Shown piece after piece: positions 6,586 to 61,873 of a stretch of 64,000 nucleotides of DNA. The notes under the pieces were generated by a model, which had not been told where the DNA came from, searched no databases, and saw nothing but the letters and a program-made list of their open reading frames with translations. How positions within the stretch are numbered: position 1 is the stretch's first letter; every line of letters starts with the position of its first letter. Origin of the DNA: an uncultured Bacilli bacterium (GTDB lineage: Bacteria; Bacillota_I; Bacilli_A; RF39; UBA660); contig CAKPSO010000002.1 of NCBI GenBank assembly GCA_934183185.1, positions 3,050-67,049 on the forward strand, given 5' to 3'. Position numbers and translations under genes: made by a program.

Positions 6586-6598
6586 TATAAAAACCTCC

Positions 6599-9520: not shown

Positions 9521-9522
9521 AA

Positions 9523-9804: not shown

Positions 9805-9820
9805 CCTTTCCTAATAGGAT

Positions 9821-9903
9821 GATTTTCCATAAAACGAAAAAATCAACCCAATTTGAGTTGATATTTATATTTAAAGTTCGAATAGTTCGAACAGATTCTC
9901 TAG
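9821..9903. repeat. att-like repeat copy C: native 3' flank of tRNA-Leu (hairpin GTTCGAA-TAG-TTCGAAC plus rho-independent terminator)
   Basis: Minus strand after tRNA 3' end: UCAAC-UCAAAUUGG-GUUGA followed by UUUUUU. Confidence 0.6.
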
Positions 9904-9988
9904 TGGTGCGGGTAACAGGAGTTGAACCTGCAAGCCTTGCGGCGCTAGATCCTAAGTCTAGTGCGTCTGCCAATTCCGCCATACCCGC
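9904..9988 (-). tRNA. tRNA-Leu (anticodon UAG), long variable arm, encoded CCA
   Basis: Reverse complement GCGGGTATGGCGGAATTGGCAGACGCACTAGACTTAGGATCTAGCGCCGCAAGGCTTGCAGGTTCAACTCCTGTTACCCGCACCA. Confidence 0.9.
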
Positions 9989-9993
9989 AAAAA

Positions 9994-10070
9994 TGGTGGA
10001 CCCTGATGGACTCGAACCATCGACCGCCCGGTTATGAGCCGGATGCTCTAACCAACTGAGCTAAGGGTCC
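9994..10070 (-). tRNA. tRNA with CAU anticodon, sequence resembles tRNA-Ile2 (lysidine) more than elongator Met; encoded CCA
   Basis: Reverse complement GGACCCTTAGCTCAGTTGGTTAGAGCATCCGGCTCATAACCGGGCGGTCGATGGTTCGAGTCCATCAGGGTCCACCA closely matches Bacillus tRNA-Ile(CAU) architecture. Confidence 0.8.
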
Positions 10071-10151
10071 ATGACTATTTAATAATAGCACAAAGATAAA
10101 TAGTATGCAACAACTTTTGTTAAAAAAAATTAATTTCCCTTAATTTTATTT

Positions 10152-11051: not shown

Positions 11052-11132
11052 TATGCAACACCTCTTTTTTTGCCAATTAATATAACACTAATTATAATTA
11101 ATGTAAATAATAAAAGTAGGAATTTTTATTCC

Positions 11133-25251: not shown

Positions 25252-25683
25252 TTACTTCCTCCAAACTTTTTCTTTTAAATAATCCCATAGAGTCATTTTA
25301 TTCTGTTCTAATGATACTTCAATCAGAGGTATAGGAGTAGATAGTTTAGACGTTTCTATTAGAACCGGTAGATAAACTTTATTATTTTCCATTATACTTT
25401 CTCTCTCTATTTTCTTTATATCATATGTATATTTCTTTTTATTGTATAGAAATTTATTACTATTAAGCCATAAATCTATATCTTGGTATGGAACTATTAC
25501 TTGATATAAATTATTCTCTTTTATCTGTATTATAAACTTTTTCTGACCTACATAAGATAATTTAAAAAATATTAAAATAAATAATATTATAAAAATCAAT
25601 AAACTACGATGAAGTACATATAAAGGTAATTTGAAATAATCTCGTTCATAATTACCACTAGTAAGACTATTAATTATTTTCAT
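25252..25683 (-). CDS. Small membrane protein between exporter and bacteriocin genes (candidate immunity protein or truncated HlyD/LcnD-type accessory)
   Basis: 143 aa, one N-terminal TM helix (LLIFIILFILIFF); far shorter than the ~450-aa accessory proteins. Confidence 0.4.
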   Translation of the reverse strand: MKIINSLTSGNYERDYFKLPLYVLHRSLLIFIILFILIFFKLSYVGQKKFIIQIKENNLYQVIVPYQDIDLWLNSNKFLYNKKKYTYDIKKIERESIMENNKVYLPVLIETSKLSTPIPLIEVSLEQNKMTLWDYLKEKVWRK

Positions 25684-27751
25684 AGCAGATACCTTCTCTC
25701 ATTTCTATTTTTCGATTAAATAGATCATTATTGTGGTAACGGTGTGAAATAATTATAAAAGTCTTTTCAGGATACTTAGTAAATATATTGGTAAGTATTT
25801 CTCTTTCTCTATCAATATCTATTTCATTTAGACTCTCATCAAATATATACAAATCAGCATTCTTATAAATAGCTCTGGCAAGAATTATTCTTTGCCTTTC
25901 TCCACCACTTATATTAAAGCCATTTTCTTCTAATAGCATATTATATTTTAATGGATTGTTTTCTACTATTTCATCTACTTTGCATAAGGCGCATATATCT
26001 AAAAATGATTCATATTCTTCTTCGCTATCTAAATGAATATTTTGGTATACTGAGTCTTGAAATAAGATTTCATTCTGAGATAAGTAACATACCTGTCTTT
26101 TTAGAGTATCATTATCATACTCAGATAATGGATATTTATCTAGAGTTATACTTCCAGTAACTTGGGGTATTATTCCAGCTAATATTTTAGCTAGAGTACT
26201 TTTACCACTACCGCTTTTACCATAAATTAATACACGGTCACGAGCTTTTATTTCTAACGAAATTCCATTTAGAATTTTTCTTTTAGGACTATATTGATAA
26301 CTTAAATCCTTTACCATTATATTTCCAATAATTTTCTCTTTCTTCATTTTGATATTCTGAGCTTCATCTTGTGGTATTTGAAATAAGTCATCTACTCTTT
26401 CAATGGAAAGTTTGGCATCCCTCCACTTATATCCTATATCAAAAAGATTTCTAATTGGTTCAAAAAAATAAACTAATAATGTATAGAAAGTGAGAAGTTG
26501 TCCTAATGATATATTATCTTTTAGGACCATGAAAGAGCCTACAATTATAACCAAGAGAATGCCTATTTCTTCGATTAAATCACTTAGTGAACGTAAGTAG
26601 GTAAAAATAGTTGAAGTTCTGTAACTTACTTGTAAATACTCTTTTAATTTGGTAATGAAATTATGTTCTACATACTTTTCTATACCAAATCCACGTACTG
26701 TTTCCATTCCTGATATTGTTTCAACTAAATAAGAATTAGTAATATTAGCTTTTTCTTTTAATACTTTCATTCTTTTAGAAAACAATTGCCAAGATATTAG
26801 TATTATAATAACTAATATTAAAGTAATTACTATTAATATGCTTGATAATTGTATGCTTAGTTTAAGTAATACTATAATAACTGTTATTAAAAGAAAAGTA
26901 TCAACAAAGCAGGTAACAAAAACTTTTCCTAGAAAATCTTTTATATTTTCTAAATCCTGAACTCTAGCTACTATTTCTCCTGTAGAATGATTTTTATAAT
27001 ATAAATATGGGAGGGATAATAATTTGTGGTAAACATCTGTAAGAAGACTATTACTAATTACGTGATTGAAATGATGTAGTAATAAGTTTCTCCATAATTC
27101 AAGCCATTTTTTTAATAATATTACGAACATAAATGAAATTCCACCAAAATAAAGATTCGTAATGGATGAATATTGGATCACATAATCTAGTAATACTTGG
27201 AATTCAAATGATGAGACTATACTTAAAAAAGTAGTAAATGCTGATATTAAAGCTAAGCATATTAAATTCTTTCTATACTTATAAATTATCTTCTTGATTT
27301 TTGGCATTATTAATGATGAGTCTGTGTAATTAGGTATTTTCTTAACGGGGTATAAACATAAATATAAATCAGAAGATATTTTATTGAAGTCAAGAAAACT
27401 TATTTTTTTAATAGACGAGGCTGGATCTGCTATTAAAATCTTTTTTCTTTTATAGTCTATTTTGTAGATAACTATAAAGTGTTGGTAACTATTATTTATA
27501 ACTACGTGGGCTATACATGGTAAATCATTTTGATCCATATCTTCAATTTTACCTTTTAGTCCTTTAGTAGAAAAATTAAACTTTTTTGCAGCTTCCAATA
27601 AAGAATAGGCATCTACTCCATCTTTGGTTGTATGAGTAATATCTCTTAAATATTCTTTTGAAGCTCCACCACCATAATACTTCATTATCATAAGTAAGGA
27701 TGCTACCCCACAATCTTTAATTCCATCTTGAGATACAAATGGATATTTCAT
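25670..27751 (-). CDS. Bacteriocin ABC transporter with N-terminal C39 double-glycine peptidase domain
   Basis: C39 catalytic Cys (QDGIKDCGVASLLMI) and His (QHFIVIY), six TM helices, Walker A GKSGSGKST, signature LSGGERQR; probable start MKYPF at 27751. Confidence 0.9.
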   Translation of the reverse strand: MKYPFVSQDGIKDCGVASLLMIMKYYGGGASKEYLRDITHTTKDGVDAYSLLEAAKKFNFSTKGLKGKIEDMDQNDLPCIAHVVINNSYQHFIVIYKIDYKRKKILIADPASSIKKISFLDFNKISSDLYLCLYPVKKIPNYTDSSLIMPKIKKIIYKYRKNLICLALISAFTTFLSIVSSFEFQVLLDYVIQYSSITNLYFGGISFMFVILLKKWLELWRNLLLHHFNHVISNSLLTDVYHKLLSLPYLYYKNHSTGEIVARVQDLENIKDFLGKVFVTCFVDTFLLITVIIVLLKLSIQLSSILIVITLILVIIILISWQLFSKRMKVLKEKANITNSYLVETISGMETVRGFGIEKYVEHNFITKLKEYLQVSYRTSTIFTYLRSLSDLIEEIGILLVIIVGSFMVLKDNISLGQLLTFYTLLVYFFEPIRNLFDIGYKWRDAKLSIERVDDLFQIPQDEAQNIKMKKEKIIGNIMVKDLSYQYSPKRKILNGISLEIKARDRVLIYGKSGSGKSTLAKILAGIIPQVTGSITLDKYPLSEYDNDTLKRQVCYLSQNEILFQDSVYQNIHLDSEEEYESFLDICALCKVDEIVENNPLKYNMLLEENGFNISGGERQRIILARAIYKNADLYIFDESLNEIDIDREREILTNIFTKYPEKTFIIISHRYHNNDLFNRKIEMREGICYENN

Positions 27752-27850
27752 AATTATTATCACCTCCTGATAATAATTATTATAAGAAAGTTGGAAGATG
27801 ACTGCATTTTTTTTCAAAAAAGTTAAAAAAAATGAAAAAAACAGTATTTT

Positions 27851-42247: not shown

Positions 42248-43780
42248 TTATTTATTTCTTGTTTTTCCGGTATATGTATAACCATTATTTAATAAGTTTT
42301 TATCTCCGTATGAACTCCATAAGTAAGTAGTTTTAGCTTCTTGAACATTAGTACATGTTTTCTCACGATAGAAATGAACATCACCATAAATTGCCTTTTC
42401 AGCTGATTTTTGAACTGTTTTAATTTCAGTTATAGTTCTATTTATATATAATGGGATTGAACGTGTTTCTACACTTGTACAAGTAGCTGTTACAGTAGCT
42501 GCAGAAGTGTGAGAAGTTCCATTACGTTTATATAAATGCCATACTGTATATGGGTGATTTGTACATGTTGCACCACATTCACCATAGTCTACCCCAACAG
42601 GTAACCATTTTGCAGTAGGGGTTGGATCTGATGGTGGATTGTATCCTCTATGTTCTTGTTTAGTATCATACCAATCACCTGTTACTTGAGTAATAGTATT
42701 TCCTGATACAACGTAATTATATCCTGTACATACTTTATAATCATGAGTGCCTACTTGAACTTGTTCAGGATAAGTAAATGTTACTTTTTCATAAACGGCT
42801 GGTTCAGTACCAATTTGTACTTTCTTAGTGCCTAAATCTTCTACTACTTTATAAATGTTATTTACTGTAGTTAAACTTTGTCCTGATTTAAGAAGTTTTG
42901 TTGACCAATTTGACCAGTTACTACAATAAGCTTCAGTATATTTTCTATATTCATATTCTTTTACTGGATTGTTACTTGGTTTTGGAGTACATTCATCTTT
43001 CCAAGTTTCAAAACTTACTTCAGTTGCATTTTTACCATAGTATTTACCATCTTTTATCTCACAAGCCTTTGGAACATCTGGAGTAACTGTTGGTGTTGGA
43101 GTTACTGTAGGTGTAGTTGTTGGCGTTGTAGTTGGTGTAGGTGTAGGTTTAACAGTTGGTGTATTAGTTGGAGTAAGTGTTGGTCTTGGGCTGTTACTTG
43201 GTTTAGGTGTTGGTTTATTAGTTAGTTTAGGTGTAGTTGAAGGTTTTTCAGTATTATTAGGTTTAGCTTCACAAATATCTGTTGAACAGTATGAGTAGCA
43301 TCCTAAATGTACTAAAATATAGTTTTCTTCTTCACTACATTTTAAGTTAACTTTCATTAGATATTCAGTATCTTTTTTCTCTAATGATACATATGATGCT
43401 GTTACATCACATGCTTTACCATTCTTATCAACAAATGGTATTAATAACTTCATGTCTAACATTTCTTGTAATGTCATTTTCTTAACATCACCTACATTTT
43501 CTGGTAATCTCTCAGTTGTATAGTAAGTGATTGCAGCATTCTTCATTTCTTGAATGTTAGCATTGAATATTTGATCCTTTAATGGGTTTAAAGCATCAAT
43601 ATATGAGTCCATTTTAGGCCATGGTACTAGCCATATAAGTAATAACACAAAGATGATAATCAAAATTAGCTTTAGTAAAAAGCTTTTTAGTAGATTTCCT
43701 TTTCTTTCTTCTGTATACATATTATAATCTCCCCCTTTGTTTATGTGCCGTATTATAGCATAAAACAAATTTTTTGTCAA
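42248..43780 (-). CDS. Signal-anchored Cys-rich extracellular protein with PT-rich linker
   Basis: N-terminal TM LLKLILIIIFVLLLIWLV, linker PTPKPSNSPRPTLTPTNTPTVKPTPTPTTTPTTTPTVTPTPTVTP, many Cys; 14-nt gap to upstream gene. Confidence 0.45.
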   Translation of the reverse strand: MTKNLFYAIIRHINKGGDYNMYTEERKGNLLKSFLLKLILIIIFVLLLIWLVPWPKMDSYIDALNPLKDQIFNANIQEMKNAAITYYTTERLPENVGDVKKMTLQEMLDMKLLIPFVDKNGKACDVTASYVSLEKKDTEYLMKVNLKCSEEENYILVHLGCYSYCSTDICEAKPNNTEKPSTTPKLTNKPTPKPSNSPRPTLTPTNTPTVKPTPTPTTTPTTTPTVTPTPTVTPDVPKACEIKDGKYYGKNATEVSFETWKDECTPKPSNNPVKEYEYRKYTEAYCSNWSNWSTKLLKSGQSLTTVNNIYKVVEDLGTKKVQIGTEPAVYEKVTFTYPEQVQVGTHDYKVCTGYNYVVSGNTITQVTGDWYDTKQEHRGYNPPSDPTPTAKWLPVGVDYGECGATCTNHPYTVWHLYKRNGTSHTSAATVTATCTSVETRSIPLYINRTITEIKTVQKSAEKAIYGDVHFYREKTCTNVQEAKTTYLWSSYGDKNLLNNGYTYTGKTRNK

Positions 43781-44031
43781 CTTTTCTTTTTGATAGTTAC
43801 TATTGTACTACCGTCGTTAAAAAAATCTAAATAATACTTTTCTACATAAGTATTATTCTTTAATACTTCATGAACTGTTTTTCTTAAAATACCCGTTCCT
43901 TTTCCATGAATTATTATTACCTTTTCATTTCCCATTTTGTAGTGATCACTAATGAATTCATTTACTAATATTCTGGTTATTTCTCTATCTAGACCATGTA
44001 AGTCTAAACTAGGTCTATTTTCATAATACAT
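43777..44031 (-). CDS. Smr-domain protein
   Basis: LDLHGL ... IIHGKGTG motifs of the Smr (small MutS-related) domain. Confidence 0.6.
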   Translation of the reverse strand: MYYENRPSLDLHGLDREITRILVNEFISDHYKMGNEKVIIIHGKGTGILRKTVHEVLKNNTYVEKYYLDFFNDGSTIVTIKKKS

Positions 44032-44938
44032 CTATTTTACTCCTAACTAGCACATCACTAAGTTCTGGCATAGAATTTTTACCACCAAGTTTCATTACTG
44101 ATAAAGCTCCAGCAATATTAGAAAGATTAAGTGTTTCTTCAAGAGAATAGCCATTACTGATAAAGTAAGTAAATGCTCCATGAAATATATCACCTGCACC
44201 AGTTGAATCTACTGGATGCTCAACTTTTAATGTAGGAATTATTTTATATATATTATCTATCTTGGCAAAAGATCCATAACCTTCTAGAGTAATTACTACT
44301 GTATTTTTAAATTCATCAGATAGTTCTTTATGAATTTCAATTAAAGTATTAATATCACTACAATCAATTTTCTTATTGGTATACTCTTCAGCAAAGTCTT
44401 TAGAACAAACTAAGTACTTAACATATTTACATAGTTCTACTATTGGTTCTTTTAAATTACCAGCATCTAACACACTTATACAGGTTGGATTATCAATTAA
44501 AACTCTTTTAGATATTTCTAATTCTTCTCCATCAACTAATATTACATCTGGTTTTATATTTAAATCAAGGTTTCTAACTCCATGATCTTTATTACGACTA
44601 ACAATAATCGTTCTAGAACCATTACTACTATTTGCAAGAATATAACTTGTAGTTGTGTTAAAATCATTAGCTGTTTCTAAGTAATCAATATTAGTACCAA
44701 TATCAGTAAACTCTTTCTTGATTCTTTCTCCATATAGATCATTACCTACTACTCCTACAAAGTAAGTATCCATTCCCCATTTGGATAAGAGGTAAGCTGC
44801 ATTTGCTGCAGCCCCACCCCCACACTCAACACCTGGTGCGATTCTCATTTTTGTATTTTCAATGGGAAATTCTGAAACAGGTAAAGTTATATCATAGGCA
44901 GCATGTCCTATACACATGTATTTTTTCATAACTACCAC
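44021..44938 (-). CDS. pfkB/ribokinase-family sugar kinase
   Basis: GG motif near N-terminus and DSTGAGDIFHGAF anion-hole motif. Confidence 0.7.
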   Translation of the reverse strand: MVVMKKYMCIGHAAYDITLPVSEFPIENTKMRIAPGVECGGGAAANAAYLLSKWGMDTYFVGVVGNDLYGERIKKEFTDIGTNIDYLETANDFNTTTSYILANSSNGSRTIIVSRNKDHGVRNLDLNIKPDVILVDGEELEISKRVLIDNPTCISVLDAGNLKEPIVELCKYVKYLVCSKDFAEEYTNKKIDCSDINTLIEIHKELSDEFKNTVVITLEGYGSFAKIDNIYKIIPTLKVEHPVDSTGAGDIFHGAFTYFISNGYSLEETLNLSNIAGALSVMKLGGKNSMPELSDVLVRSKIDVL

Positions 44939-45003: not shown

Positions 45004-46755
45004 CTAGAAATACCAGCTGCTTAGCCATTTAAGACTATCAATATAGTCACTATTAGTAAGCATTCCTGATATTACTGGATAGAAACAAATAAACATTAAT
45101 ATTACAATAGCTACATAGAATAAGTAAACACTATTATTTTTGATTTTTTCAGTTATCCATTTAATGAAAGCTGTTATAGCTAACATAACAAATGGTAAAG
45201 TTGGGAAATAATGATACATAAACATAACTCTTCCAATAAATAAATATGGTAACCAACTACATAGTATAAATACTAGGATAAAAGCATATTCTCTTTTTTT
45301 CTTTAGAATAGTCATGATTAATACAAAGATACTTGCAAGTATTCCAAACCACCAAATAGCTGGATTACCAATACCTACGATAGTAGATTTAATATTTCCA
45401 CCGTGATATCCTACATAATACCAAACTGGTTTATACATAATTGGCCATGTATACCATTTAGAAGAAAAATCATGAGTAGCAGTTAATTTAGAATGATATT
45501 CATACATATTTTTAGTTTGTTCTATTAGGCCACTAATACCTGATACTTTACCAGGATAAATAGTTGGGAATAATAAGTATGCTAGTGTATAAATTACGAT
45601 AGGCATTACTACAAAGAATAGTATGCAAGCAAGAATTATTTTACCTAAATCTTTTTCTTTTCTACCTCTTCTATTTTGAAGAATAATATGAGTAAAGAAC
45701 ACAATAGCTAGTCCTAATCCAATGTATAATCCAGTCCATTTAGTAGCTATAGCACATCCTATAAATAAGCCTGATAGGAATAGATTTAATAATTTTTTGC
45801 TTAGTCTTTCTCTCTTATCCATAACGATATATTTATACATAAATAGTACTGATAACATCATGAATAATACTAAGAAGCTATCTACAGTTCCCATTCTGGT
45901 TTGTGCAAAATGGAAACAATCAAATGTCATAAGTAATGCTGCAAGTATAGCCCATTTTCTATTTTTGAAAATGTTTTTAGCTAATGAATAGATAACAGGT
46001 ATCATTAATATACCAGCAATATTACCCATTAGACGGTAAGCAAATGTACACATTCCAAATAACATAATTGGAAGAGTCATAAGTAATTTACCAAGTGGTG
46101 GATGAACCCATTCATTAGTTGGAATACCATGAATATATTCATAGGCACTTCTAGCAAAATAAACTTCATCAAAGTAAGCACTATTTTTATAGCTTATTGT
46201 TGCTGGAACAGTGTTTGCTTCATCTATTACTACTTTACTTTGATCATCATTAGCTATAGCAGTTATTTTTTCACCATATTTATCATATAGTTGAATTTCT
46301 CCTATAACGCTTCCTTTATCTTTAGCAACAAATTTAATATATTTACCTGTAGTATCTATATTAAAATCATTCCAAGAGAATACCATATTTTGTTCTATGG
46401 TTGTTAGATAGTCATAATTTTCTCCATCGTTAGATGCAAATATATCATAACTACCTACTTCATAACCAGAGTAGATTCTTGCAAGTCCTACTTCTTGGTT
46501 AGGTTTTTGTAATTCTAGGCCAATTTCTTCTCCAGAATATTGGAATTCATAAAAAGTTTGTGGATTTTTAAGAGTTCCTAAATCTTTAAAAGATAAAATA
46601 GCATAGAATAATACGAATACTGCAATTATTATCCAGTCTGTCTTTTTAAGTTTACGATCATCATCACGAAGATATGATTTCACTTTAGAAAACCAAGTCG
46701 TTTTCTGTTTGTTTTCTTTTGTTTCTTTTTTCTTTTTCATATGACTATGATTCAA
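45004..46755 (-). CDS. GT39 (PMT/ArnT-like) protein O-mannosyltransferase-like membrane glycosyltransferase with inserted N-terminal discoidin-like domain
   Basis: YFDEVYFARSAYEYI DE motif and HPPLGKLLM, more than 10 TM helices; ~140-aa soluble domain between TM1 and the DE motif. Confidence 0.65.
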   Translation of the reverse strand: MNHSHMKKKKETKENKQKTTWFSKVKSYLRDDDRKLKKTDWIIIAVFVLFYAILSFKDLGTLKNPQTFYEFQYSGEEIGLELQKPNQEVGLARIYSGYEVGSYDIFASNDGENYDYLTTIEQNMVFSWNDFNIDTTGKYIKFVAKDKGSVIGEIQLYDKYGEKITAIANDDQSKVVIDEANTVPATISYKNSAYFDEVYFARSAYEYIHGIPTNEWVHPPLGKLLMTLPIMLFGMCTFAYRLMGNIAGILMIPVIYSLAKNIFKNRKWAILAALLMTFDCFHFAQTRMGTVDSFLVLFMMLSVLFMYKYIVMDKRERLSKKLLNLFLSGLFIGCAIATKWTGLYIGLGLAIVFFTHIILQNRRGRKEKDLGKIILACILFFVVMPIVIYTLAYLLFPTIYPGKVSGISGLIEQTKNMYEYHSKLTATHDFSSKWYTWPIMYKPVWYYVGYHGGNIKSTIVGIGNPAIWWFGILASIFVLIMTILKKKREYAFILVFILCSWLPYLFIGRVMFMYHYFPTLPFVMLAITAFIKWITEKIKNNSVYLFYVAIVILMFICFYPVISGMLTNSDYIDSLKWLSSWYF

Positions 46756-46942
46756 TTATGAATCATTCCTCCTTTTCTTTTATATTACATCTATATAAAT
46801 TTTATAAATGCCTGAAATTCGTGGCCGCGGCTTTTCATAAAAGGAGAAAAGCTATAGCCTCATATATCAATATTTTTTTAATTAATGATTTATACTTTTC
46901 TCCAATTCCTGTTTACGCGAGTGTTAACGGCACATTCGGTGC

Positions 46943-48871
46943 CTACGGAGCAAGCACTACACGAAAAGAATTGTACGTGTCCACATCGCCTGGACCGAAG
47001 CCGAATGCAAATGCACCAGATTCAGTGGCATTGTACCAATAGCCCCCGCGTACGAACCAAGGAAAATAAAAATCAGCAAAGAGAGCGAGATCTCCATACC
47101 AACTTGATTTTTGCCTAGTTGTACCATCTGGATCTTTTTCACTTCCAAATGGGCCCATCTCTCCAGTTGCATCTCCTAAAATTCTATTATTATATTGTGT
47201 TTTAGAAATTGATGTATATTTATCCCAATATTTTGTATAAGTACTATTAGTAAAGAAGTCTTGATATATACTAGTTATTTCGCTTTTTCCCCCTACTGTT
47301 GTTGCACCAGTAGTATAGCCTGCTACATATTCCCAGGCACCTCCTGCCATATCATAAATTCCACTTCTATTTCCTGTAGTTGATGCTACACCTGAGTTAG
47401 CATTTAAATAATTTACAGTATAGGTTCCATCTACTCCTAAAGAAGTTGATTCATGTCTATTAGTATCGGTACTTGAACTAGTTGGACCAGTTGTTGGCTC
47501 AGTAGTTGATGCATAACCGGTAATATATGCTTCATTATTATTTATTCTGATACTAGCTTTACTACCATATACTGAATGTTGTAAGTATGCTACCGCTCCC
47601 CACTCTGTATTCTTCATCATATGTGAATCTAAATTTCTTTGATAATCATAACTATTTTTAAAAGCATTACCTACAGTTATATTTCGCCAACTATATACAT
47701 TTGGTTTTATTATTATCTTACTTGTATCTACACTGTTTACTTGGGCGGCACTAGTACTTGTAGCTTTATCATATCCAGTTTCAAACTTTCCTACCCAGAA
47801 ACCATTTGAATCAAAACTAGTAAATGCTGGATGAGTTAACCATGAGTCCTTAGTAGTTCCATTTGATGGAGTTGTATCTTTATTCTCAAATACTACATTT
47901 ATGGTTTGAACTTTGTTTTCGATACTAGTTAGGCTTGTATAATTACCTTCATCAAATATTTGGTATTTGAACCTAGGTATCCATACAAAGTATGACTCAA
48001 TATTATCTTCTGGTATTGTTTCTCCATTATTATAAGTTTTTGTTTCATCTTTTAATATTATGGCATTGGCCCATTCTTTATTTTCATACTTGTACCATTC
48101 TTTACTTATGTCTGCCTTAGTTACTGTTCCATCACCAGCTATTTTTATTGGTATTAAATTACCCTTTAATACTGGGTCTGTTCCATTTAATATTGTTTCT
48201 TTATATGCAGTTGTTTCTTTTTCTATATCCACATTTGAATATACATTTACTGTTGCTTTAAACGTTTTATCATTATATGGATATACTTGATTACCACTAT
48301 TATCTTTTGTTGGTGAAAAGTCTGTAGCCTCATCTATCCATATTCTTAATCTAAAACTCTTTTCATAATTAGTAGTATTTGCTTTTATTGTTGATTGGTA
48401 TAAAGTCTTTTCTATATTACCATTTACTTCTACCTTTGTATCAGCTAATTGATTATACTTAGTTGGTGCTACTAATACTCTTTCCGTTGTATCTGTAGTA
48501 TCAGTTAAATATACTTTTACTACACTAGAATCTAGTGTTGAATCGCTACTCTTTCTTAATGTTACTTCATATGGCATAATAGTATCTCCAGTATTTGTTG
48601 CCTGTACTTTAAAATCAAAAATATTATTATTACCTTCTAATAGTTTTCCTTGACTATCTGATATTGGAAAGGCATTAGTCATAGTTATACCATTTCCTCC
48701 ACCACTATTTTCTGTATATATAAATTTTAATGTTCCTGTAGTTACTGTATTATCTGTAGTTCCTAATTTTGTATAAGTAAATACTGCATAAGTTACTCCC
48801 GTAGTTATTAATAGTAGGCTAGCTATTCCAAGTAAAGATACTATTATTTGTCTACTCTTATTACTCATCAT
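46943..48871 (-). CDS. TasA/camelysin-like secreted protein (SipW-cognate signal) with C-terminal FGE-sulfatase-like domain
   Basis: N-terminus LLLITTGVTYAVFTYTKLGTTDNTVTTGTLKF matches GxTxAxF(S/T)D...GTL pattern of TasA/CalY; C-terminal GIYDMAGGAWEY and RGGYW...FRVV resemble FGE-sulfatase fold. Confidence 0.6.
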   Translation of the reverse strand: MMSNKSRQIIVSLLGIASLLLITTGVTYAVFTYTKLGTTDNTVTTGTLKFIYTENSGGGNGITMTNAFPISDSQGKLLEGNNNIFDFKVQATNTGDTIMPYEVTLRKSSDSTLDSSVVKVYLTDTTDTTERVLVAPTKYNQLADTKVEVNGNIEKTLYQSTIKANTTNYEKSFRLRIWIDEATDFSPTKDNSGNQVYPYNDKTFKATVNVYSNVDIEKETTAYKETILNGTDPVLKGNLIPIKIAGDGTVTKADISKEWYKYENKEWANAIILKDETKTYNNGETIPEDNIESYFVWIPRFKYQIFDEGNYTSLTSIENKVQTINVVFENKDTTPSNGTTKDSWLTHPAFTSFDSNGFWVGKFETGYDKATSTSAAQVNSVDTSKIIIKPNVYSWRNITVGNAFKNSYDYQRNLDSHMMKNTEWGAVAYLQHSVYGSKASIRINNNEAYITGYASTTEPTTGPTSSSTDTNRHESTSLGVDGTYTVNYLNANSGVASTTGNRSGIYDMAGGAWEYVAGYTTGATTVGGKSEITSIYQDFFTNSTYTKYWDKYTSISKTQYNNRILGDATGEMGPFGSEKDPDGTTRQKSSWYGDLALFADFYFPWFVRGGYWYNATESGAFAFGFGPGDVDTYNSFRVVLAP

Positions 48872-48944
48872 ATCACTCCCGTTTATTATTACTACTTTAG
48901 TCTACCATAATTTATTTACTTTATCAATTGTATTACTTAATAAA

Positions 48945-48981
48945 ATTTAAAAAAAGAGTTTTACATACTAGTAAAACTCTT
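48945..48981 (-). terminator. Rho-independent terminator after ABC permease gene
   Basis: Minus strand AAGAGUUUUAC-UAGUAU-GUAAAACUCUU plus UUUUUUU. Confidence 0.6.
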
Positions 48982-48987
48982 AATTAG

Positions 48988-50310
48988 TTATTTACTTTTT
49001 GCAGCTTTGAATAACCTATGCCACATCTTATCAGTAGAATAATTTAAAATACCTACTTTATATATTCTTAAACCATACTTAATAGCTATAAAAATAAATA
49101 CTATTAGGGCTATAATTGATATTAAAACATCTATTACTGTTATTTGGCCTATTACTAATAAAGCTGGTGCTAATAAACAAGATATAAATGGTAAATAAGA
49201 TAATATTCTAATAATAGTAGAGCCCTCAAACATACCTGCCATAATAGCTAAGTAGTATGATAATAAACATACTAGCATGATTGGCGTTTGTATTTGTTGA
49301 AAATCCTCTACATTTACAGTCATAGATGCTAATATTCCAGCAACTAATGAATATGCTAAGAAAGATAAAACCATTAGTATTAAAGTAAGTGGTATAATAT
49401 AATACATTTTATCCATTAAACCACTAGTTGATAGAGTCTGCCATACTTCTCCTATACTATCAGTAATACTATTAGCACTACTAGTTATACCTATACTATT
49501 TCTTATTAATAATCCAATAAACGCATATAAGAATAATAATATTCCTTGACCTATAACGAATATATTAGAAGCTAATATCTTAGAAAAGAAATGAGTTTTG
49601 GGGCTTACATTAGATATAATTATTTCCATACTTCTAGTAGATTTTTCTTCATTTATTTCAGAACCTAACATCTGTACTAAAAATACTACTAACATAAAGA
49701 AAGGTAAGATTACAGTTGGAAATACTGTACCCATTATCATAGCCATACTTTCTTCTTCACTCTTAGCTTCTTCATCTAATATAACTCTATCTATAGGTAT
49801 AGATGAAGTGATTCTATTTAATTCACTAAAGTCAATAGTAGTTAAATTCATAGCTACCTCTGTTTTAGTAGATGTTAGTGCCTGTACTAAAGTTTGATAA
49901 TACATAGTATCTATCTTCTCTTTTGACATAATAGTAGCTTTAATATAAGCACTGTCATCTTCATCAAAGATGATTGCTATCTTATTGGAATCATTTATTT
50001 CTTTCTTCAAATCTTCTTCACTTTTAGTAGTTATTTCTACTTTAGTTTTATAATCATTTCCTAAAAGTGTATTAGTACTATTTAAATTCTTTTCAAATAT
50101 ATCGCCTACTAAATTAGATTTATCTAATACAATTACATTTACTGTATCATTAAAATCTCCACCAAAAAAGTGTATGATATTATCCATATTTATTAAACAA
50201 GTTATTACGATTAATAGAATAATATTAGCTATTAAAAACCATTTAGTTTTTACCTTTTTCTTTAGTGATACTCCTACTAAATACCAAAATTTACTATTCA
50301 TACTTCTCAC
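48988..50310 (-). CDS. ABC-2 type transporter permease
   Basis: N-terminal TM, large extracytoplasmic loop, five C-terminal TM helices; overlaps ATPase gene. Confidence 0.6.
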   Translation of the reverse strand: MRSMNSKFWYLVGVSLKKKVKTKWFLIANIILLIVITCLINMDNIIHFFGGDFNDTVNVIVLDKSNLVGDIFEKNLNSTNTLLGNDYKTKVEITTKSEEDLKKEINDSNKIAIIFDEDDSAYIKATIMSKEKIDTMYYQTLVQALTSTKTEVAMNLTTIDFSELNRITSSIPIDRVILDEEAKSEEESMAMIMGTVFPTVILPFFMLVVFLVQMLGSEINEEKSTRSMEIIISNVSPKTHFFSKILASNIFVIGQGILLFLYAFIGLLIRNSIGITSSANSITDSIGEVWQTLSTSGLMDKMYYIIPLTLILMVLSFLAYSLVAGILASMTVNVEDFQQIQTPIMLVCLLSYYLAIMAGMFEGSTIIRILSYLPFISCLLAPALLVIGQITVIDVLISIIALIVFIFIAIKYGLRIYKVGILNYSTDKMWHRLFKAAKSK

Positions 50311-51223
50311 CTACTTTAGAGATAAATATTTCGTTTAGAGTTGGTTCTTCTACCACAAACTTAGTTATCTTATTCTTAGAAATAGATTCAAATACAGAGT
50401 CAACAACTTCTTCATCTTTAATTTTAACTTCGTATTCATTAGCTAATTTTTCTACTTTTATTACACCGTCTATTGATTTTATTTTTTCTATATCAATATC
50501 ACCTATAATATGGATATTCTTTTTACGATATTCTTTCTTAATATCTTTTAAATACCCTTCTAATACTACTTTACCTTTTACTAGAATTATTAATTTTTCA
50601 CAAAACATTTCTATATGTTCCATTTGATGTGATGAAAAGATAATAGAGCATCCTTTTTTCTGTAGTTCATAGATTGCTTGTTTAAACATTTCTACATTTA
50701 TTGGATCTAAGCCAGTAAATGGTTCATCTAATATTAATAGTTTTGGTTCATTTATTACTGCTGAAATAAACTGTATTTTCTGTTGATTACCTTTAGATAA
50801 TTCTTTTATTTTTCTATTTTTATATTCTTCTATTTTGAACTTTTTTAACCATTCATCAAGTCTTTCTAATACTACCTCTTCTCTCATACCTTTTAATATG
50901 CCATAATATACTATCTGATCTTTTACAGTCATTTTAGTAAGTAGGCTTCTTTCTTCAGTAACGAAACCAATTTTATCAGTAACAGTATAATCTATTTTTT
51001 TATCATCTAAAGTTACTGTACCATTATCTGCTTCTAACAAGCCCATAATAATACGAAAGGTAGTAGTTTTACCTGCACCATTAGCTCCTAATAATCCAAA
51101 TATTTCCCCATCTTTAACGGTAAATGATAAATTATCTACAGCTAAGTTACTTCCATATGATTTTGAGATATTTTTTACTTTTAGCATTTTGTCACCCCAC
51201 AATATAAAACATTGCTTAAGCAA
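50294..51223 (-). CDS. ABC transporter ATP-binding protein
   Basis: Walker A GANGAGKTT, signature LSKGNQQK, Walker B LLILDEPF. Confidence 0.85.
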   Translation of the reverse strand: MLKQCFILWGDKMLKVKNISKSYGSNLAVDNLSFTVKDGEIFGLLGANGAGKTTTFRIIMGLLEADNGTVTLDDKKIDYTVTDKIGFVTEERSLLTKMTVKDQIVYYGILKGMREEVVLERLDEWLKKFKIEEYKNRKIKELSKGNQQKIQFISAVINEPKLLILDEPFTGLDPINVEMFKQAIYELQKKGCSIIFSSHQMEHIEMFCEKLIILVKGKVVLEGYLKDIKKEYRKKNIHIIGDIDIEKIKSIDGVIKVEKLANEYEVKIKDEEVVDSVFESISKNKITKFVVEEPTLNEIFISKVGEKYE

Positions 51224-51232
51224 TGTTTACTT

Positions 51233-51709
51233 TTACTTACAAGTTGCTCCTATACTTTCGTATACAGCTTGAATATCAGCAAGTTTAACCTTACCATCTT
51301 TGATTAAACTACTATTATTACTGTCAATTTCAATTAACTTATCTGTATCAATTTTACTGTAATCAATAGTTACTACACTAGTCATTGTGTCATCTTTTAC
51401 TGTTACATCATAATCATAATATTTAACATCTTTGTATGGTGAATATATTGATTCTACTTGGGTTTTATAGGCTTCTAAATATGATTCTTGGTTGCTGATA
51501 ACTTTTTCTGTTGATTTTACAGTAGTAACATAATCTCCTTTATAGTTTACTTCATAACGTAAGTCAGCTTTAACACCATCTGTGATAGTAGTTGTGTTAG
51601 TACATGTTAGTTTTTTCTCACTTTCGTTAGATTTTGATTCACATCCAGCTAATGTGAATACTCCTACAGTAATTAGTAATAAACTTAAAAATTTTTTCAT
51701 TCCTCTCAC
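51233..51709 (-). CDS. Lipoprotein
   Basis: Signal peptide with lipobox LAGC (MKKFLSLLLITVGVFTLAGCES). Confidence 0.6.
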   Translation of the reverse strand: MRGMKKFLSLLLITVGVFTLAGCESKSNESEKKLTCTNTTTITDGVKADLRYEVNYKGDYVTTVKSTEKVISNQESYLEAYKTQVESIYSPYKDVKYYDYDVTVKDDTMTSVVTIDYSKIDTDKLIEIDSNNSSLIKDGKVKLADIQAVYESIGATCK

Positions 51710-57548: not shown

Positions 57549-58148
57549 CTATGATGCACAGGTATTGCTACTATATATAGTAGCAATCCAATCTATTCTA
57601 TTACCGTTAGTATCGGTTGGTTGAAGATTTTCTAAGCCTTTGATAGTTGACAAAACAGCTTTTTTACCAGATGGGGTTCCACATAGAGACTGAATAGTTA
57701 CTTCCATTTTATTCTTAGCATCTGATATTACTTCACTACGATTTACATCATCAATATTCATTAGTGGAATAGCATGACGATCTTTGTCCTGCCCAGCTAC
57801 AAGATATGTATATTCAATATTATTAGGAGTTCCAGTATTTACAACTGCTACATAACTTTTACTTTTTACCCACTCACTGTCAAAGGAAGATGAAAATTTA
57901 CCTTTATCAAGTGGTATTGATTCTAATGAAACGATTAAAACTTGATTAAAATCTATTGGTGCCGTATAATCTTCTGCTGCTATTCCTTTACGAACTGCAT
58001 CTACATATTCAGATAAAACATCGGCGAAGGCTTCTCTTTTAGATGAATCTATATAATTAGAAGCTGCTGGAATAGCTATAGTTAAAACAATACTTAATAT
58101 TACTACTACGCCTAATAATTCTACTAGTGTAAAGCCTTTTCTATTCAT
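57549..58148 (-). CDS. Type IV pilin-like protein (prepilin N-terminus, C-terminal disulfide loop)
   Basis: MNRKGFTLVELLGVVVIL class III signal with G-F cleavage site and E+5; Cys pair near C-terminus. Confidence 0.75.
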   Translation of the reverse strand: MNRKGFTLVELLGVVVILSIVLTIAIPAASNYIDSSKREAFADVLSEYVDAVRKGIAAEDYTAPIDFNQVLIVSLESIPLDKGKFSSSFDSEWVKSKSYVAVVNTGTPNNIEYTYLVAGQDKDRHAIPLMNIDDVNRSEVISDAKNKMEVTIQSLCGTPSGKKAVLSTIKGLENLQPTDTNGNRIDWIATIYSSNTCAS

Positions 58149-58226
58149 GTTCTCACATCCCTATGTTAATAATATCATAAATTTTATAAAAGTACAAAAG
58201 AAAAACCCAACTTTGTGGGTTTCTTT

Positions 58227-58826
58227 TTATTTAGCTACTTCTTTTACAGTGATGACATTCTGTTCAGTGCTACTAGCTTTTTCTAATCTACCGTTAGTTG
58301 CTACTTTAAAATAAGTTGGTGTTGATGAAGTAGTATCATATATTTTTTCAAAACCATTGCTGTCTAGACGAATTACATCTGATGCTTTTAGACTTTTTTC
58401 ATCTATTATTTCAAGATTTTTATTTGAACCAGTTACATATTTACCATCTGATGCTGTTACATAATAATCGTATTTTGGTGAATCTGCTGATCCTGTATTT
58501 ACTATTATTACATAAGAATTATCTAACTTCCATGGTAAGTCATATGAACTATTTACTCCACCTTTTTCAATAGCGATACTTAATACGCTAAATGGTACTA
58601 CTGTTGCATCGTTAGTATCGATTGGATAACTATATTCATCTCCTAATGTTGCTCCTTTTCTTGCAGCATCTATAAATTGAATTAAGTTATCTTTATATCC
58701 ATTCTTTCTTGATTTAGTTATATATTGAGATACAGCTGGGATAGCTATTCCTAATACTACAGCTAAAATTACGATTACAGCTAGTAATTCAATTAATGTG
58801 AACCCTTTCTTATTTAATTTCTTCAT
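58227..58826 (-). CDS. Type IV pilin-like protein, copy 1 of duplicated gene
   Basis: MKKLNKKGFTLIELLAVIVILAVVLGIAIP prepilin motif; first ~140 codons identical to 61292..61873. Confidence 0.75.
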   Translation of the reverse strand: MKKLNKKGFTLIELLAVIVILAVVLGIAIPAVSQYITKSRKNGYKDNLIQFIDAARKGATLGDEYSYPIDTNDATVVPFSVLSIAIEKGGVNSSYDLPWKLDNSYVIIVNTGSADSPKYDYYVTASDGKYVTGSNKNLEIIDEKSLKASDVIRLDSNGFEKIYDTTSSTPTYFKVATNGRLEKASSTEQNVITVKEVAK

Positions 58827-58845
58827 AATAACTATTCTCCTCTCT
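58410..58845. repeat. Direct repeat copy 1 (~436 bp, near-identical to 61454..61892) covering pilin 5' half and RBS
   Basis: Line-by-line identity over coding 5' region and ATAATAACTATTCTCCTCTCT RBS region. Confidence 0.8.
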
Positions 58846-58931
58846 ATTATTATATTTTAATTTTACTACTAATAATTTTTAATTGTCAACAAAGGGCAAT
58901 ACTTTTAAAAATTATTGTCACTAGTTTACAT

Positions 58932-59435
58932 TTAGTTACTACAAGTTCTAATTCCACCAGTTACACCAGTGATACTACGAATATCGCTATCAGTTGGCAC
59001 TGTAAAGTTTTTAACTACATAGCTTAATTTGCCATCTTCATCAAGTTTTTTCTTTTCTGTTAGGCGAATTCCTCTATTCTTACCGTTTTCACCAGCTACA
59101 AGATTAACATAGTAGACTAGTTCTTCGTCTTTATGGACCACAATCACAAAGGAATCAGTTTCGCTATATTCATTTCCATCAGGATCTTTAGTTAGGTCCT
59201 GATTATCAACACATGATAGGTTGATTCTTACTATTTCACCAGCTACTGGTTTACTGATTGTGTTAGCTAATTCTGTTTTGGCTTGGGTTAAAAACTTTTT
59301 AGCATCTGATATATAAGTTTCTTTTTTGCTTTTTTCTAAGCTAGATACTATATTTGGTATAGCTATTCCCATAATAATAGAGAGAATTACCAATACTGCT
59401 AAAAGTTCTATTAATGTAAATCCACGTTTATTCAT
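58932..59435 (-). CDS. Type IV pilin-like protein with C-terminal Cys pair
   Basis: MNKRGFTLIELLAVLVILSIIMGIAIP prepilin motif. Confidence 0.75.
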   Translation of the reverse strand: MNKRGFTLIELLAVLVILSIIMGIAIPNIVSSLEKSKKETYISDAKKFLTQAKTELANTISKPVAGEIVRINLSCVDNQDLTKDPDGNEYSETDSFVIVVHKDEELVYYVNLVAGENGKNRGIRLTEKKKLDEDGKLSYVVKNFTVPTDSDIRSITGVTGGIRTCSN

Positions 59436-59466
59436 ATTTTTTCTCCTTTTTTGAATTGATTTTTAT

Positions 59467-61197
59467 TTAACTTATAACGTATGGGTCAGAACTTGTCCCA
59501 GTTCCCGTTACCAGCATGTCAGCATTCAGGCTCAAAACTGCACGAAGGCGATTAGTAACATTAACATTGTCGTTATTGATGTTACCTGACGTATTTACGC
59601 GCCATACAGTCGAACCCAAGAAGCCGGCCGGGCTCATTGTCCACCAATTAATAGCTGAATTATATAAATAATATTTACTATTATCTTTTCCATAATAACC
59701 ACCTGCATGTACTACTTCATCATAACTTAATAATCCCACACTGGCATTGACTGGTCCTTTTCCATTTCCATCGGTTGTACATTTAAAATCTGGCGTATAA
59801 CTTGAGTATAATGTCATTGTTGCACTTCCCGATGTCCAACTTGAATCACATTTAGCTTTTGCTTGTTCACAATAATAATTGCCACTAGCTACATTTTTAA
59901 CTAAGTCTGCTTTACTTCCGATATTCGTTTGATACCAGCTTTCAAGTTGAGTCTTAGCTTCACTATTTGAATAATACATATAAGTATAGTTTTTATAATT
60001 TGGATTAAATGCAATATTAGCATTACTATTGATTCCATCTTGCATTACGATTCTTATTGTTCCATCTTCATTTACTCTTACTATTCTCCATGTTTGACCA
60101 GCAAACTTTACATAGTTATTAGTAACATTTCCTCTAAAGTAATATGTTGGATTTCCTGTATTAGTAGCAGTCGATTTATATAATCCACTTGCATCACTTG
60201 TATTATTACTTGATGTAGTAAGTGTTGGATTAGCTGTAATTATTGTATTTTTCATTATTTCATCTTTTAATGGTACTGCCTGTTTTACTTTAATATTAAT
60301 TTTGTATTCTTTAGTTACTGTTTGATCTGTACTAGTAATAGTTACTTTATAGATATTATTACCACCTACTAGACTTACTTCACTATTATTTGATATTACT
60401 TGATTATCTTTTTCTATCTTTACATTAGCTAATGAATACTTAGGTACTATATTTAACTTAGTAGTAGTTTCACTATCTAACTCTACTTCATAGTTCCAGT
60501 CTTTTCCTTCTACTTTAGTTAAACTGGTATCTCCTATAGTTATATCTTTTATATCAGTATTACTTCTTAATACTTGTTCTTCAGCTGATATTACTTTAGC
60601 ATTTGAATATACATTTACTGTTGCTGTAAAGGTTTGTCCTCCTATAACGCTTAAATCTGCATTTTCATCTAACCACATTTTTAATCTAAATGTCTTTAAA
60701 TAATTATTAGTATTTCCTGCTACTTCTCCTTTATAGATACTCTTTTCTACATTATTTCCAACATCAGTAGTAGTTTGTACTAATTTACTATATAGTGTTG
60801 GTGTTAGTAATTCTGTTTGATCTATCCCATCTTGAAGATATACTTTTATATTATCTTCTCCCATAGTAGAAGTAGCTTTCTTTCTTAGTGTTACTTCATA
60901 TGGTATTACTTCACTTCCAGTATTTGTTCCTTCTACTTTGAAATCAAATACATTATTATCTCCTACTAATTCTTTACCCTTAGTATCTGATATTGGTTCT
61001 GCTTCAGTTATACTTATTCCATTACCATTAGTATTATTTTCTGTATACAAGAACTTTAATGTACCAGTAGTTATGATATTATCTGTAGTTCCTTCCTTTG
61101 TATAAGTAAATACTGCATAGGTTACTCCTATAGTTATTAAAAATAAACTTACTATTCCTAGTAATGATACTATTAGTTGCCTCCTATTAGTCTTCAT
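59467..61197 (-). CDS. TasA/camelysin-like secreted protein (SipW-cognate signal) paralog with distinct C-terminal domain
   Basis: LFLITIGVTYAVFTYTKEGTTDNIITTGTLKF; first ~200 aa homologous to 46943..48871; C-terminus WWTMSPAG...NRLRAVLSL. Confidence 0.6.
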   Translation of the reverse strand: MKTNRRQLIVSLLGIVSLFLITIGVTYAVFTYTKEGTTDNIITTGTLKFLYTENNTNGNGISITEAEPISDTKGKELVGDNNVFDFKVEGTNTGSEVIPYEVTLRKKATSTMGEDNIKVYLQDGIDQTELLTPTLYSKLVQTTTDVGNNVEKSIYKGEVAGNTNNYLKTFRLKMWLDENADLSVIGGQTFTATVNVYSNAKVISAEEQVLRSNTDIKDITIGDTSLTKVEGKDWNYEVELDSETTTKLNIVPKYSLANVKIEKDNQVISNNSEVSLVGGNNIYKVTITSTDQTVTKEYKINIKVKQAVPLKDEIMKNTIITANPTLTTSSNNTSDASGLYKSTATNTGNPTYYFRGNVTNNYVKFAGQTWRIVRVNEDGTIRIVMQDGINSNANIAFNPNYKNYTYMYYSNSEAKTQLESWYQTNIGSKADLVKNVASGNYYCEQAKAKCDSSWTSGSATMTLYSSYTPDFKCTTDGNGKGPVNASVGLLSYDEVVHAGGYYGKDNSKYYLYNSAINWWTMSPAGFLGSTVWRVNTSGNINNDNVNVTNRLRAVLSLNADMLVTGTGTSSDPYVIS

Positions 61198-61291
61198 CTA
61201 TAAATACTCCCTTCTATTTTCTACATTACCAGTATAATTCATTAGTAAAATAGCAGTCAAGAAAAAATGTATAAAAAAAGAAGAAGCTTTT

Positions 61292-61873
61292 TTATTTAGA
61301 AGCTACTTCTTTTACAGTTATTGTTCCATTAGAATCAGATGTTAGTCTACCAGTTGATGCGTTAACAGTAAATTTATTACCAACTGCTATAGTACTGAAT
61401 CCATTATTATCTAGACGAATTACATCTGCTGCTTTTAAATTCTTTTCATTAATAATTTCAAGATTTTTATTTGAACCAGTTACATATTTACCATCTGATG
61501 CTGTTACATAATAATCGTATTTTGGTGAATCTGCTGATCCTGTATTTACTATTATTACATAAGAATTATCTAACTTCCATGGTAAGTCATATGAACTATT
61601 TACTCCACCTTTTTCAATAGCGATACTTAATACGCTAAATGGTACTACTGTTGCATCGTTAGTATCGATTGGATAACTATATTCATCTCCTAATGTTGCT
61701 CCTTTTCTTGCAGCATCTATAAATTGAATTAAGTTATCTTTATATCCATTCTTTCTTGATTTAGTTATATATTGAGATACAGCTGGGATAGCTATTCCTA
61801 ATACTACAGCTAAAATTACGATTACAGCTAGTAATTCAATTAATGTGAACCCTTTCTTATTTAATTTCTTCAT
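61292..61873 (-). CDS. Type IV pilin-like protein, copy 2 of duplicated gene
   Basis: Identical N-terminal 140 aa to 58227..58826, divergent C-terminus. Confidence 0.75.
   Translation of the reverse strand: MKKLNKKGFTLIELLAVIVILAVVLGIAIPAVSQYITKSRKNGYKDNLIQFIDAARKGATLGDEYSYPIDTNDATVVPFSVLSIAIEKGGVNSSYDLPWKLDNSYVIIVNTGSADSPKYDYYVTASDGKYVTGSNKNLEIINEKNLKAADVIRLDNNGFSTIAVGNKFTVNASTGRLTSDSNGTITVKEVASK

Follow-up and report, generated by a model that had tools for sequence, protein, structure and literature searches.

A membrane glycosyltransferase of family GT39 is encoded on the minus strand of a 64,000-nucleotide stretch of DNA from an uncultured Bacilli bacterium (contig CAKPSO010000002.1; the whole stretch is called the window below). 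We read this enzyme as a general protein O-glycosyltransferase of the type represented by Cbes_1864 of Caldicellulosiruptor bescii. Its best candidate acceptors are p510 and p851, two membrane proteins encoded downstream. A 642-amino-acid (aa) protein encoded directly upstream would be at most a further substrate, and an ABC-2 exporter encoded beyond it would be unrelated. We give this reading a probability of about 0.55. The GT39/PMT-type identity of the enzyme is solid at the level of sequence, and a role in protein O-glycosylation is plausible; donor, acceptor, and activity are what we infer.

By homology, the enzyme, with its GT-C fold, would take a sugar from a polyprenol-phosphate carrier at the outer face of the membrane and move it onto Ser or Thr residues of exported proteins that emerge unfolded. 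As a general enzyme, it would probably act on Pro/Thr/Ser-rich segments of surface proteins. The 642-aa protein would be a possible acceptor to which GT39 is not dedicated, and the ABC-2 exporter and its lipoprotein would form a separate, unrelated transcription unit.

The window has a GC content of ~28%, and its long open reading frames (ORFs) lie almost all on the minus strand. ORF calling and Pfam searches reproduced the gene order and positions given in a preliminary description of this DNA (Table 1): a DUF1307 lipoprotein, an ABC ATPase, an ABC-2 permease, the 642-aa protein, GT39, a pfkB-family sugar kinase, and an Smr-domain protein. These genes are followed by p510, p851, and infC-rpmI-rplT. 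Identical or near-identical contigs stem from gut metagenomes, and the nearest genome records are uncultured "Bacilli/Tenericutes" metagenome-assembled genomes, including Candidatus Scybalousia.

The PMT-family enzyme and its loop-1 insertion

The GT39 ORF matched the Pfam families PMT (E = 3e-24), PMT_4TMC (E = 5.9e-26), and PMT_2 (E = 4e-17), all above the gathering thresholds. The PMT match (PF02366) scored 86.4 bits against a threshold of 22.7 and covered profile positions 13-237 of 245. The C-terminal region with four transmembrane (TM) segments, which is specific to PMTs (PF16192), scored 91.6 bits against 32.4 and was covered at positions 4-202 of 202. When a profile of 18 homologs was compared with the PDB, the sole matches were fungal/yeast Pmt1, Pmt2, and Pmt4 (E = 1.6e-18 to 3.4e-10). 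The alignment extended from the catalytic N-terminal half into the C-terminal half, and neither ArnT nor an oligosaccharyltransferase appeared at E ≤ 0.01. A survey of 185,579 species genomes confirmed relatives of the enzyme at 376 sites.

The DE and HPPLGK motifs named in the preliminary description are both present. D196 and E197 ("YFDEVYF") are invariant in the 18 homologs, as are H, P, P, G, and K of the second motif (H218-K223) and residue R241. In the profile alignment, "YFDEIYF" was placed onto "FDEVHF" of the fungal PMTs, and HPPLGK onto their "vhpplGkl". For S. coelicolor Pmt, the DE hallmark motif and highly conserved residues were chosen for mutagenesis (PMC8698208); its residues D113/E114, H159/P161/K164, and R182 correspond to D196/E197, H218-K223, and R241 of GT39. 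A MIR domain, located in loop 5 of eukaryotic PMTs, gave no Pfam match in GT39. Bacterial Pmt proteins normally lack this domain.

Some 125 residues are inserted in extracytoplasmic loop 1, after TM1 and ahead of the DE motif. This insertion had been described as discoidin-like, and two weak, independent matches agree with this. The match to Pfam F5_F8_type_C had an E value of 0.0033 and, with 18 bits, stayed below the gathering threshold; the GT39 profile matched the family 32 carbohydrate-binding module (CBM32) of CpGH89 (4a42) at E = 0.0023 over positions 65-151.

Such a domain could bind a glycan polymer, and non-protein acceptors are known for other GT-C enzymes, for example ArnT and YfhO. 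GT39 might modify lipoteichoic acid, a wall polysaccharide, or a lipid, with the surface-protein genes beside it being coincidental neighbors. In NCBIfam, secondary and weak matches to ArnT and to STT3 of archaea point in this direction, as do the lack of a donor-synthesis gene nearby and the uniform strand bias, which leaves adjacency uninformative. We nevertheless consider a non-protein acceptor quite unlikely: the strongest matches were to PMT and the PMT-specific 4TMC region, PMT structures alone were matched, and the one characterized Firmicute enzyme of such architecture glycosylates proteins.

Candidate acceptors encoded downstream of GT39

Gene neighborhoods were compared at 80 GT39 loci from species-representative genomes (44-100% identity, 1.28 Mb in total). 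At 55 of them, GT39 is followed by Smr and p510, with or without an intervening pfkB, and then by a p851-like protein of ~700-950 aa; this arrangement persists down to 44% GT39 identity. Taken singly, Smr is found downstream of GT39 at 57 loci and pfkB at ~44. The pfkB gene is also present in pfkB-Smr-p510 blocks without GT39. A role of the kinase in the donor pathway was considered and rejected, because the gene stays with Smr-p510 where GT39 is absent. Its best NCBIfam match was ribokinase (116 bits, below the cut-off of 299.65).

The p510 protein starts with a short cytoplasmic N-terminus ("MYTEE") and a TM segment (residues 14-32). Beyond these come a conserved domain with Cys, a linker, and a C-domain that likewise contains Cys. 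Searches of Pfam and the PDB yielded no relative beyond matches to low-complexity Pro/Thr (PT) repeats. The linker is a hypervariable, low-complexity stretch of Pro, Thr, and Ser, the sequence of which is not conserved. A 25-aa segment with at least 60% Pro/Thr/Ser was present in 54 of 55 p510 homologs versus 7% of all ORFs at the same loci. Among the ORFs of the GT39 loci that reach 72%, 46 of 55 are p510, and the remaining ORFs with a segment of at least 64% are mostly p851-like proteins. In composition, the p510 linker equals known acceptor linkers of GT39 enzymes (PMC12757957, PMC6151902), among them the Pro-Thr linkers of Cellulomonas, which are classic, heavily mannosylated PMT acceptors (PMC12757957).

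The p851 protein had no match in Pfam. It carries a TM segment at residues 122-140 and a Pro/Thr-rich C-terminal segment (Pro/Thr/Ser fraction, 0.68). Its counterparts (~700-950 aa) come after p510 at most loci, and many of them contain Ser/Thr/Pro-rich stretches. We regard p510 as the most conserved candidate acceptor and p851 as the second candidate. Outside the folded domains of this pair, nothing but the Pro/Thr/Ser-rich linker is constant.

Linker richness was also compared between p510 homologs with and without GT39 upstream. A linker segment of at least 0.6 was found in 64 of 66 GT39-adjacent homologs versus 8 of 17 homologs without GT39. The latter came from a reciprocal search of metagenome contigs, in which GT39 was located upstream in 12 of the 33 p510 loci with enough upstream sequence; within this metagenome subset, 10 of 11 GT39-adjacent homologs had such a segment versus 8 of 17 GT39-less ones. 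As a separate observation, GT39 and pfkB are split into several frames at one metagenome locus (L109:2987-7334), by pseudogenization or assembly error, and the p510 homolog of this locus has the poorest Pro/Thr/Ser segment of all GT39-adjacent cases (0.32).

These data could also mean that GT39 has co-evolved with pfkB, Smr, p510, and the p851-like protein as an envelope module, in which it is specific for the linkers of p510 and p851. The block is kept at 55 of the 80 loci over GT39 identities of 44% to 100%, the Pro/Thr/Ser-rich segment is near-universal in p510 even though its sequence is not conserved, and linker richness is lower where GT39 is not adjacent. However, pfkB-Smr-p510 often occurs without GT39, p510 has a promoter-like site of its own, PT-rich exported proteins are also encoded far from GT39, and the C. 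bescii precedent is a general enzyme, not a dedicated one. We judge this alternative to be unlikely. An example of a distant PT-rich protein is the product of ORF 1338-2741 (minus strand): this exported protein is Pro/Thr-rich immediately behind the signal peptide; Big_2 and Cadherin-like domains come next, and a membrane anchor forms the C-terminus. We see in it a further plausible PMT acceptor.

Several points weigh against our reading of GT39 as a general O-glycosyltransferase with p510 and p851 as the leading candidates. At 25 of the 80 GT39 loci, p510 is not nearby, and only 1 of these 25 has a PT-rich neighbor. In the metagenome contigs, pfkB-Smr-p510 lacked an upstream GT39 at 21 of 33 loci, so the GT39-p510 linkage could be synteny inherited beside infC-rpmI-rplT. 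Since the genes lie on one strand, adjacency is weak evidence. The association of linker richness with GT39 adjacency is suggestive but confounded by phylogeny, and GT39 could lie elsewhere in the genomes concerned. A perfect sigma-70 consensus is located just upstream of p510, and p510-p851 may therefore be a transcription unit of its own. (This match falls inside the called 5' extension of the p510 ORF, which makes MYTEE, position 43720, the likely true start.) As for the enzyme, the NCBIfam Pmt equivalog NF058602 scored 89.5 bits against a cut-off of 800; by sequence, GT39 is a member of the PMT family but not an equivalog of actinobacterial Pmt. Finally, no ORF for a Ppm1-like polyprenol-phosphate sugar synthase (GT2) was seen in the window.

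The 642-aa protein, the upstream genes, and the rest of the window

The 642-aa protein had no match in Pfam or NCBIfam, and the TasA/camelysin family PF12389 was absent even at E ≤ 10. The preliminary description called the whole protein TasA-like. This term applies, distantly, to residues 1-215 alone. The leader reads "GVTYA|VFTYT", with Phe at position P2' of the cleavage site predicted from the sequence; TasA likewise has Phe at P2' of its signal-peptide cleavage site (PMC10269814). In an hhalign comparison, the N-domain proved homologous to a family of ~190-aa stand-alone proteins (c10; probability 99.2%, E = 1.9e-19, 170 columns). One member of this family (L004:328-960) matched Peptidase_M73 (PF12389) with 25.5 bits versus a threshold of 22.5, the match being confined to profile positions 18-84 of 196. 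An AlphaFold2 (AF2) model of the whole protein, based on 36 close homologs, had a predicted local distance difference test score (pLDDT) of 46; its N-domain was of moderate confidence and its C-terminal part unusable. A Foldseek search with this model returned generic beta-sandwiches and no TasA, and TasA was not found in PDB profile searches with the full-length 642-aa family or the small TasA-like family. Neither sipW nor tapA nor any signal-peptidase gene was recognized in the window. The leader and N-domain probably serve to anchor or polymerize the protein.

Residues 216-642 are of a different kind. When they were modeled from a diverse 49-sequence alignment, the mean pLDDT was 96.2 and the predicted template modeling score was 0.95. 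Foldseek matched this model to TaqVP (5VF4; E = 2e-9, probability 1.0) and also to Mtd (1YU0-3; ~3e-4), PvdO (8.7e-4), TvpA, and EgtB, and a sequence profile matched 5vf4 weakly (E = 0.007). Pfam FGE-sulfatase gave no match. The model thus predicts a head module with a C-type-lectin/FGE-like ligand-binding fold, nearest to the variable proteins of diversity-generating retroelements (DGRs). Within the family alignment, variability is highest in the last ~40 residues. We searched the window for a DGR template repeat of the last 458 nucleotides and for a plausible reverse transcriptase ORF, and found neither; the idea that the head is a DGR target is accordingly unsupported within the window.

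The 427-aa head module is common (4789 representatives at 50% identity, E ≤ 1e-3). In other organisms (P0241-P0390) it is mounted behind TasA/SipW-type leaders or behind type IV pilin leaders ("KKGFTLIELL"), and it therefore appears that one ligand-binding head is used on two fiber-type N-termini. The best description of the 642-aa protein is that of a modular surface protein resembling an adhesin, with a TasA-like stalk or anchor and a lectin-fold head. It is one copy within a large, modular, multi-copy family comprising at least 7962 matching clusters at 90% identity. In a second member encoded in the window (59467-61197), Cadherin-like and DUF6273 domains come after the same N-domain. The size of the family and the presence of this second copy count against a dedication of GT39 to the 642-aa protein.

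The second member, a 576-aa paralog, is surrounded by four type IV pilin-like genes with N_methyl leaders (57549-61873, minus strand). Two of them (58227-58826 and 61292-61873) encode the same sequence over their first ~140 residues, as would be expected from a recent duplication on either side of the paralog.

Three Ser/Thr-rich stretches had been put forward as glycosylation sites of the 642-aa protein. All three are real, but two of them (residues 370-383 and 452-476) lie in the confidently folded head, with block-mean pLDDT values of at least 91. The third, TTDTTERV in the N-domain, had pLDDT values of 84-90 in the first, poorer model. The richest stretch (residues 452-476) ranked only 4th in Pro/Thr/Ser content among the 62 ORFs of the window, behind p510, p851, and ORF 1338-2741.

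In the preliminary description, GT39, the TasA-like protein, and the ABC-2 exporter with its lipoprotein were combined into a candidate system dedicated to the O-glycosylation and export of a SipW-type fiber or adhesin. The 642-aa gene does lie directly upstream of GT39, and a search for a terminator in the gap between them detected none; the protein has a moderately Ser/Thr/Pro-rich stretch, as said. A hidden Markov model of the TasA-like N-domain was run against the 1108 ORFs of the 80 loci, and one locus with the gene truncated at the end of the contig (L003) was added by tblastn. TasA-like genes were found at position -1 of GT39 at 8 of the 73 loci with an upstream ORF (L001, L003, L004-L008, and L012) and nowhere else within ~10 kb of the 80 GT39 genes, bar one at position -5 (L009). 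This restriction to one slot speaks for a link, but the other 65 of the 73 loci have something else upstream. The gene at this position is highly variable, examples being pyruvate phosphate dikinase, a sigma factor followed by a membrane protein, and lipoprotein/acyltransferase pairs. Where a TasA-like gene is present, its head differs as well: the C-type-lectin module, Cadherin-like plus DUF6273, a glycine-rich ALK_LTK domain, or none. Moreover, close homologs of the 642-aa protein, P0007 (85% identity) and P0012 (74%), which come from one sample with similar coverage, are encoded in unrelated contexts where PMT is absent within 8 kb.

The exporter genes fared no better. The ABC-2 exporter and the DUF1307 lipoprotein adjoin GT39 only at L001 and L083, which stem from the same or a sister species. 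The terminator reported between the ABC-2 and 642-aa genes was recovered as a terminator-like hairpin, and it separates the exporter from the 642-aa gene. A function of the exporter in the export of a glycoconjugate or fiber was rejected on these grounds. Together with the two head stretches in confidently modeled regions, the lack of sipW and tapA in the window, and the relatedness of the TasA-like-positive lineages (see below), these results make a system dedicated to the 642-aa protein highly unlikely, and we retain the reading of GT39 as a general enzyme.

The -1 slot itself merits a separate comment. The four lineages with a TasA-like gene there are fairly close relatives (GT39 identity of at least 56%) and may go back to one ancestral arrangement with later turnover; the slot could equally reflect a real functional link with GT39. 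In a more daring version, the slot would be, in this clade of uncultured gut Bacilli, a preferred site for TasA-like N-domain genes with interchangeable adhesin heads, and these proteins would be O-glycosylated by GT39 in addition to the PT-linker proteins. We consider this improbable. If true, it would provide the first glycosylated TasA-type fiber and would connect adhesion to the host or to glycans in the gut with PMT-type glycosylation. At L004-L008, a cluster of four genes for small TasA/camelysin-like proteins (172-219 aa) with "GGSYAYFTAT" leaders occupies the ~2.5 kb directly upstream of GT39; no signal-peptidase gene is located inside the cluster.

Elsewhere in the window, all on the minus strand, a histidyl-tRNA synthetase-like ORF (13488-14861) ends with an unusual Cys/His-rich tail (DDDACCCSDHECNCHDNGDDCSCNGDCHCHDD). 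The region 5000-11100 has the lowest GC content of the window (~25%) and several ORFs of unknown function, one of which (8328-9362) contains a Mob_Pre-like relaxase motif, HMHIVGVPI, recognized by eye only. The low GC content and this motif may mark the remnant of a mobile element. At 25252-27817, inspection by eye only pointed to a 715-aa ABC transporter of the bacteriocin-exporter type, with an N-terminal C39-peptidase-like domain; the next gene downstream codes for a small membrane protein.

Table 1. Positions in the window of the GT39 gene, its neighbors, and features within them
Feature	Position	Strand	Basis
DUF1307 lipoprotein	51233-51709	-	Pfam DUF1307; LAGC lipobox
ABC ATPase	50294-51223	-	Pfam ABC_tran
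ABC-2 permease	48988-50310	-	Pfam ABC2_membrane_3
Terminator-like hairpin between the ABC-2 permease and 642-aa genes	48954-48981	-	11-bp stem followed by a T-run
642-aa protein	46943-48871	-	ORF; no Pfam or NCBIfam match
Putative SipW-type leader and TasA/camelysin-like beta-sandwich N-domain (residues 1-215)	48227-48871	-	hhalign
Predicted beta-rich subdomain and C-type-lectin/FGE-like head module (residues 216-642)	46943-48226	-	AF2, Foldseek
GT39/PMT-family membrane glycosyltransferase, 583 aa	45004-46755	-	Pfam PMT/PMT_2/PMT_4TMC
CBM32/discoidin-like domain (~residues 60-165 of GT39)	46261-46578	-	Two weak, independent matches
Catalytic DE motif (D196, E197; "YFDEVYF")	46165-46170	-	Invariant in 18 homologs
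HPPLGK motif (H218-K223)	46087-46104	-	H, P, P, G, and K invariant in 18 homologs
pfkB-family sugar kinase	44021-44938	-	Pfam PfkB, 4e-40
Stand-alone Smr-domain protein, 84 aa	43777-44031	-	Pfam Smr, 1.3e-17
Sigma-70-like promoter, TTGACA-17-TATAAT with upstream TG	43752-43780	-	12/12 consensus; pattern match only
p510, N-terminally anchored membrane protein, 490/510 aa	42248-43720/43780	-	ORF; likely start MYTEE at 43720
Pro/Thr-rich linker of p510 (TPKPSNSPRPTLTPTNTPTVKPTPTPTTTPTTTPTVTPTPTVTP)	43067-43255	-	Pro/Thr/Ser fraction 0.88, highest in the 64 kb
p851, bitopic membrane protein, 851 aa	39679-42234	-	ORF

Comparison with known systems

To our knowledge, work on bacterial PMT-type protein glycosylation has dealt almost exclusively with Actinobacteria and with a single thermophilic Firmicute. 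With the actinobacterial Pmt enzymes (M. tuberculosis Rv1002c, S. coelicolor) and fungal Pmt1/2/4, GT39 shares the GT-C fold with the C-terminal 4-TM region, the DE motif in loop 1, HPPLGK, and the conserved Arg. The preference of these enzymes for Sec-exported proteins with Ser/Thr(/Pro)-rich regions agrees with the role proposed for GT39. GT39 differs from both groups in its CBM32-like insertion of ~125 aa, from the fungal and animal PMTs in lacking a MIR domain, and from actinobacterial Pmt in its low NF058602 score (89.5 versus 800 bits) and in that Ppm1 was not seen in the window.

The N-domain of the 642-aa protein resembles TasA/camelysin (PF12389; B. subtilis tapA-sipW-tasA) in its "YA|VF" leader, a T-rich "TTGTL" strand, and a predicted beta-sandwich domain. 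Unlike in TasA, this domain makes up only the N-terminal third of a multidomain protein, PF12389 does not match it directly, and neither sipW nor tapA is encoded nearby. Approximately residues 346-642 (positions 46943-47836) have the predicted fold of DGR variable proteins (TaqVP 5VF4, Mtd 1YU0, TvpA 2Y3C) and of FGE, PvdO, and EgtB, with which they share the motifs "NTEWGAVAYL" and "GIYDMxGGxWEYV" and a variable C-terminal surface. In contrast to DGR variable proteins, an additional beta-rich subdomain precedes this fold, the N-terminus to which the whole is joined is TasA-like or pilin-like, and the window holds neither the reverse transcriptase nor the template repeat of a DGR system.

The closest parallel is Cbes_1864 of C. 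bescii, a single GT39 gene encoding 556 aa near the acceptor gene celA (Russell et al. 2018, PMC6151902). Its deletion removes all detectable glycosylation of secreted enzymes with Thr/Pro linkers, residues 32-124 of the protein form a loop-1 domain modeled as a carbohydrate-binding module, and a lipid-phosphate-linked sugar donor is predicted (PMC6151902). This precedent weakens the earlier view that the gene combination in our window had not been described; the GT39 type is already known in Firmicutes. In the literature searched, TasA or SipW substrates were not linked to O-glycosylation.

Judged by its published description, Cbes_1864 and the enzyme studied here are both Firmicute GT39 proteins of similar length (556 and 583 aa) with a sugar-binding domain in loop 1 after an N-terminal anchor, and both genes are located close to genes for exported proteins with Thr/Pro linkers, here p510 (0.88) and p851 (0.68). 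The hosts differ, being an uncultured mesophilic gut member of the Bacilli and a thermophilic cellulolytic member of the Clostridia. So do the acceptors: multidomain cellulases in C. bescii, and here the candidate membrane-anchored proteins p510 and p851 together with adhesin-like proteins. A new kind of system is not established by this comparison. The locus does show that GT39 enzymes of this architecture, with a carbohydrate-binding domain in loop 1, occur widely among uncultured gut Bacilli, and p510 and p851 are concrete candidate acceptors for O-glycosylation in a gut commensal lineage. Both this uncharacterized pair and the recurrent TasA-like slot upstream of GT39 are worth following.

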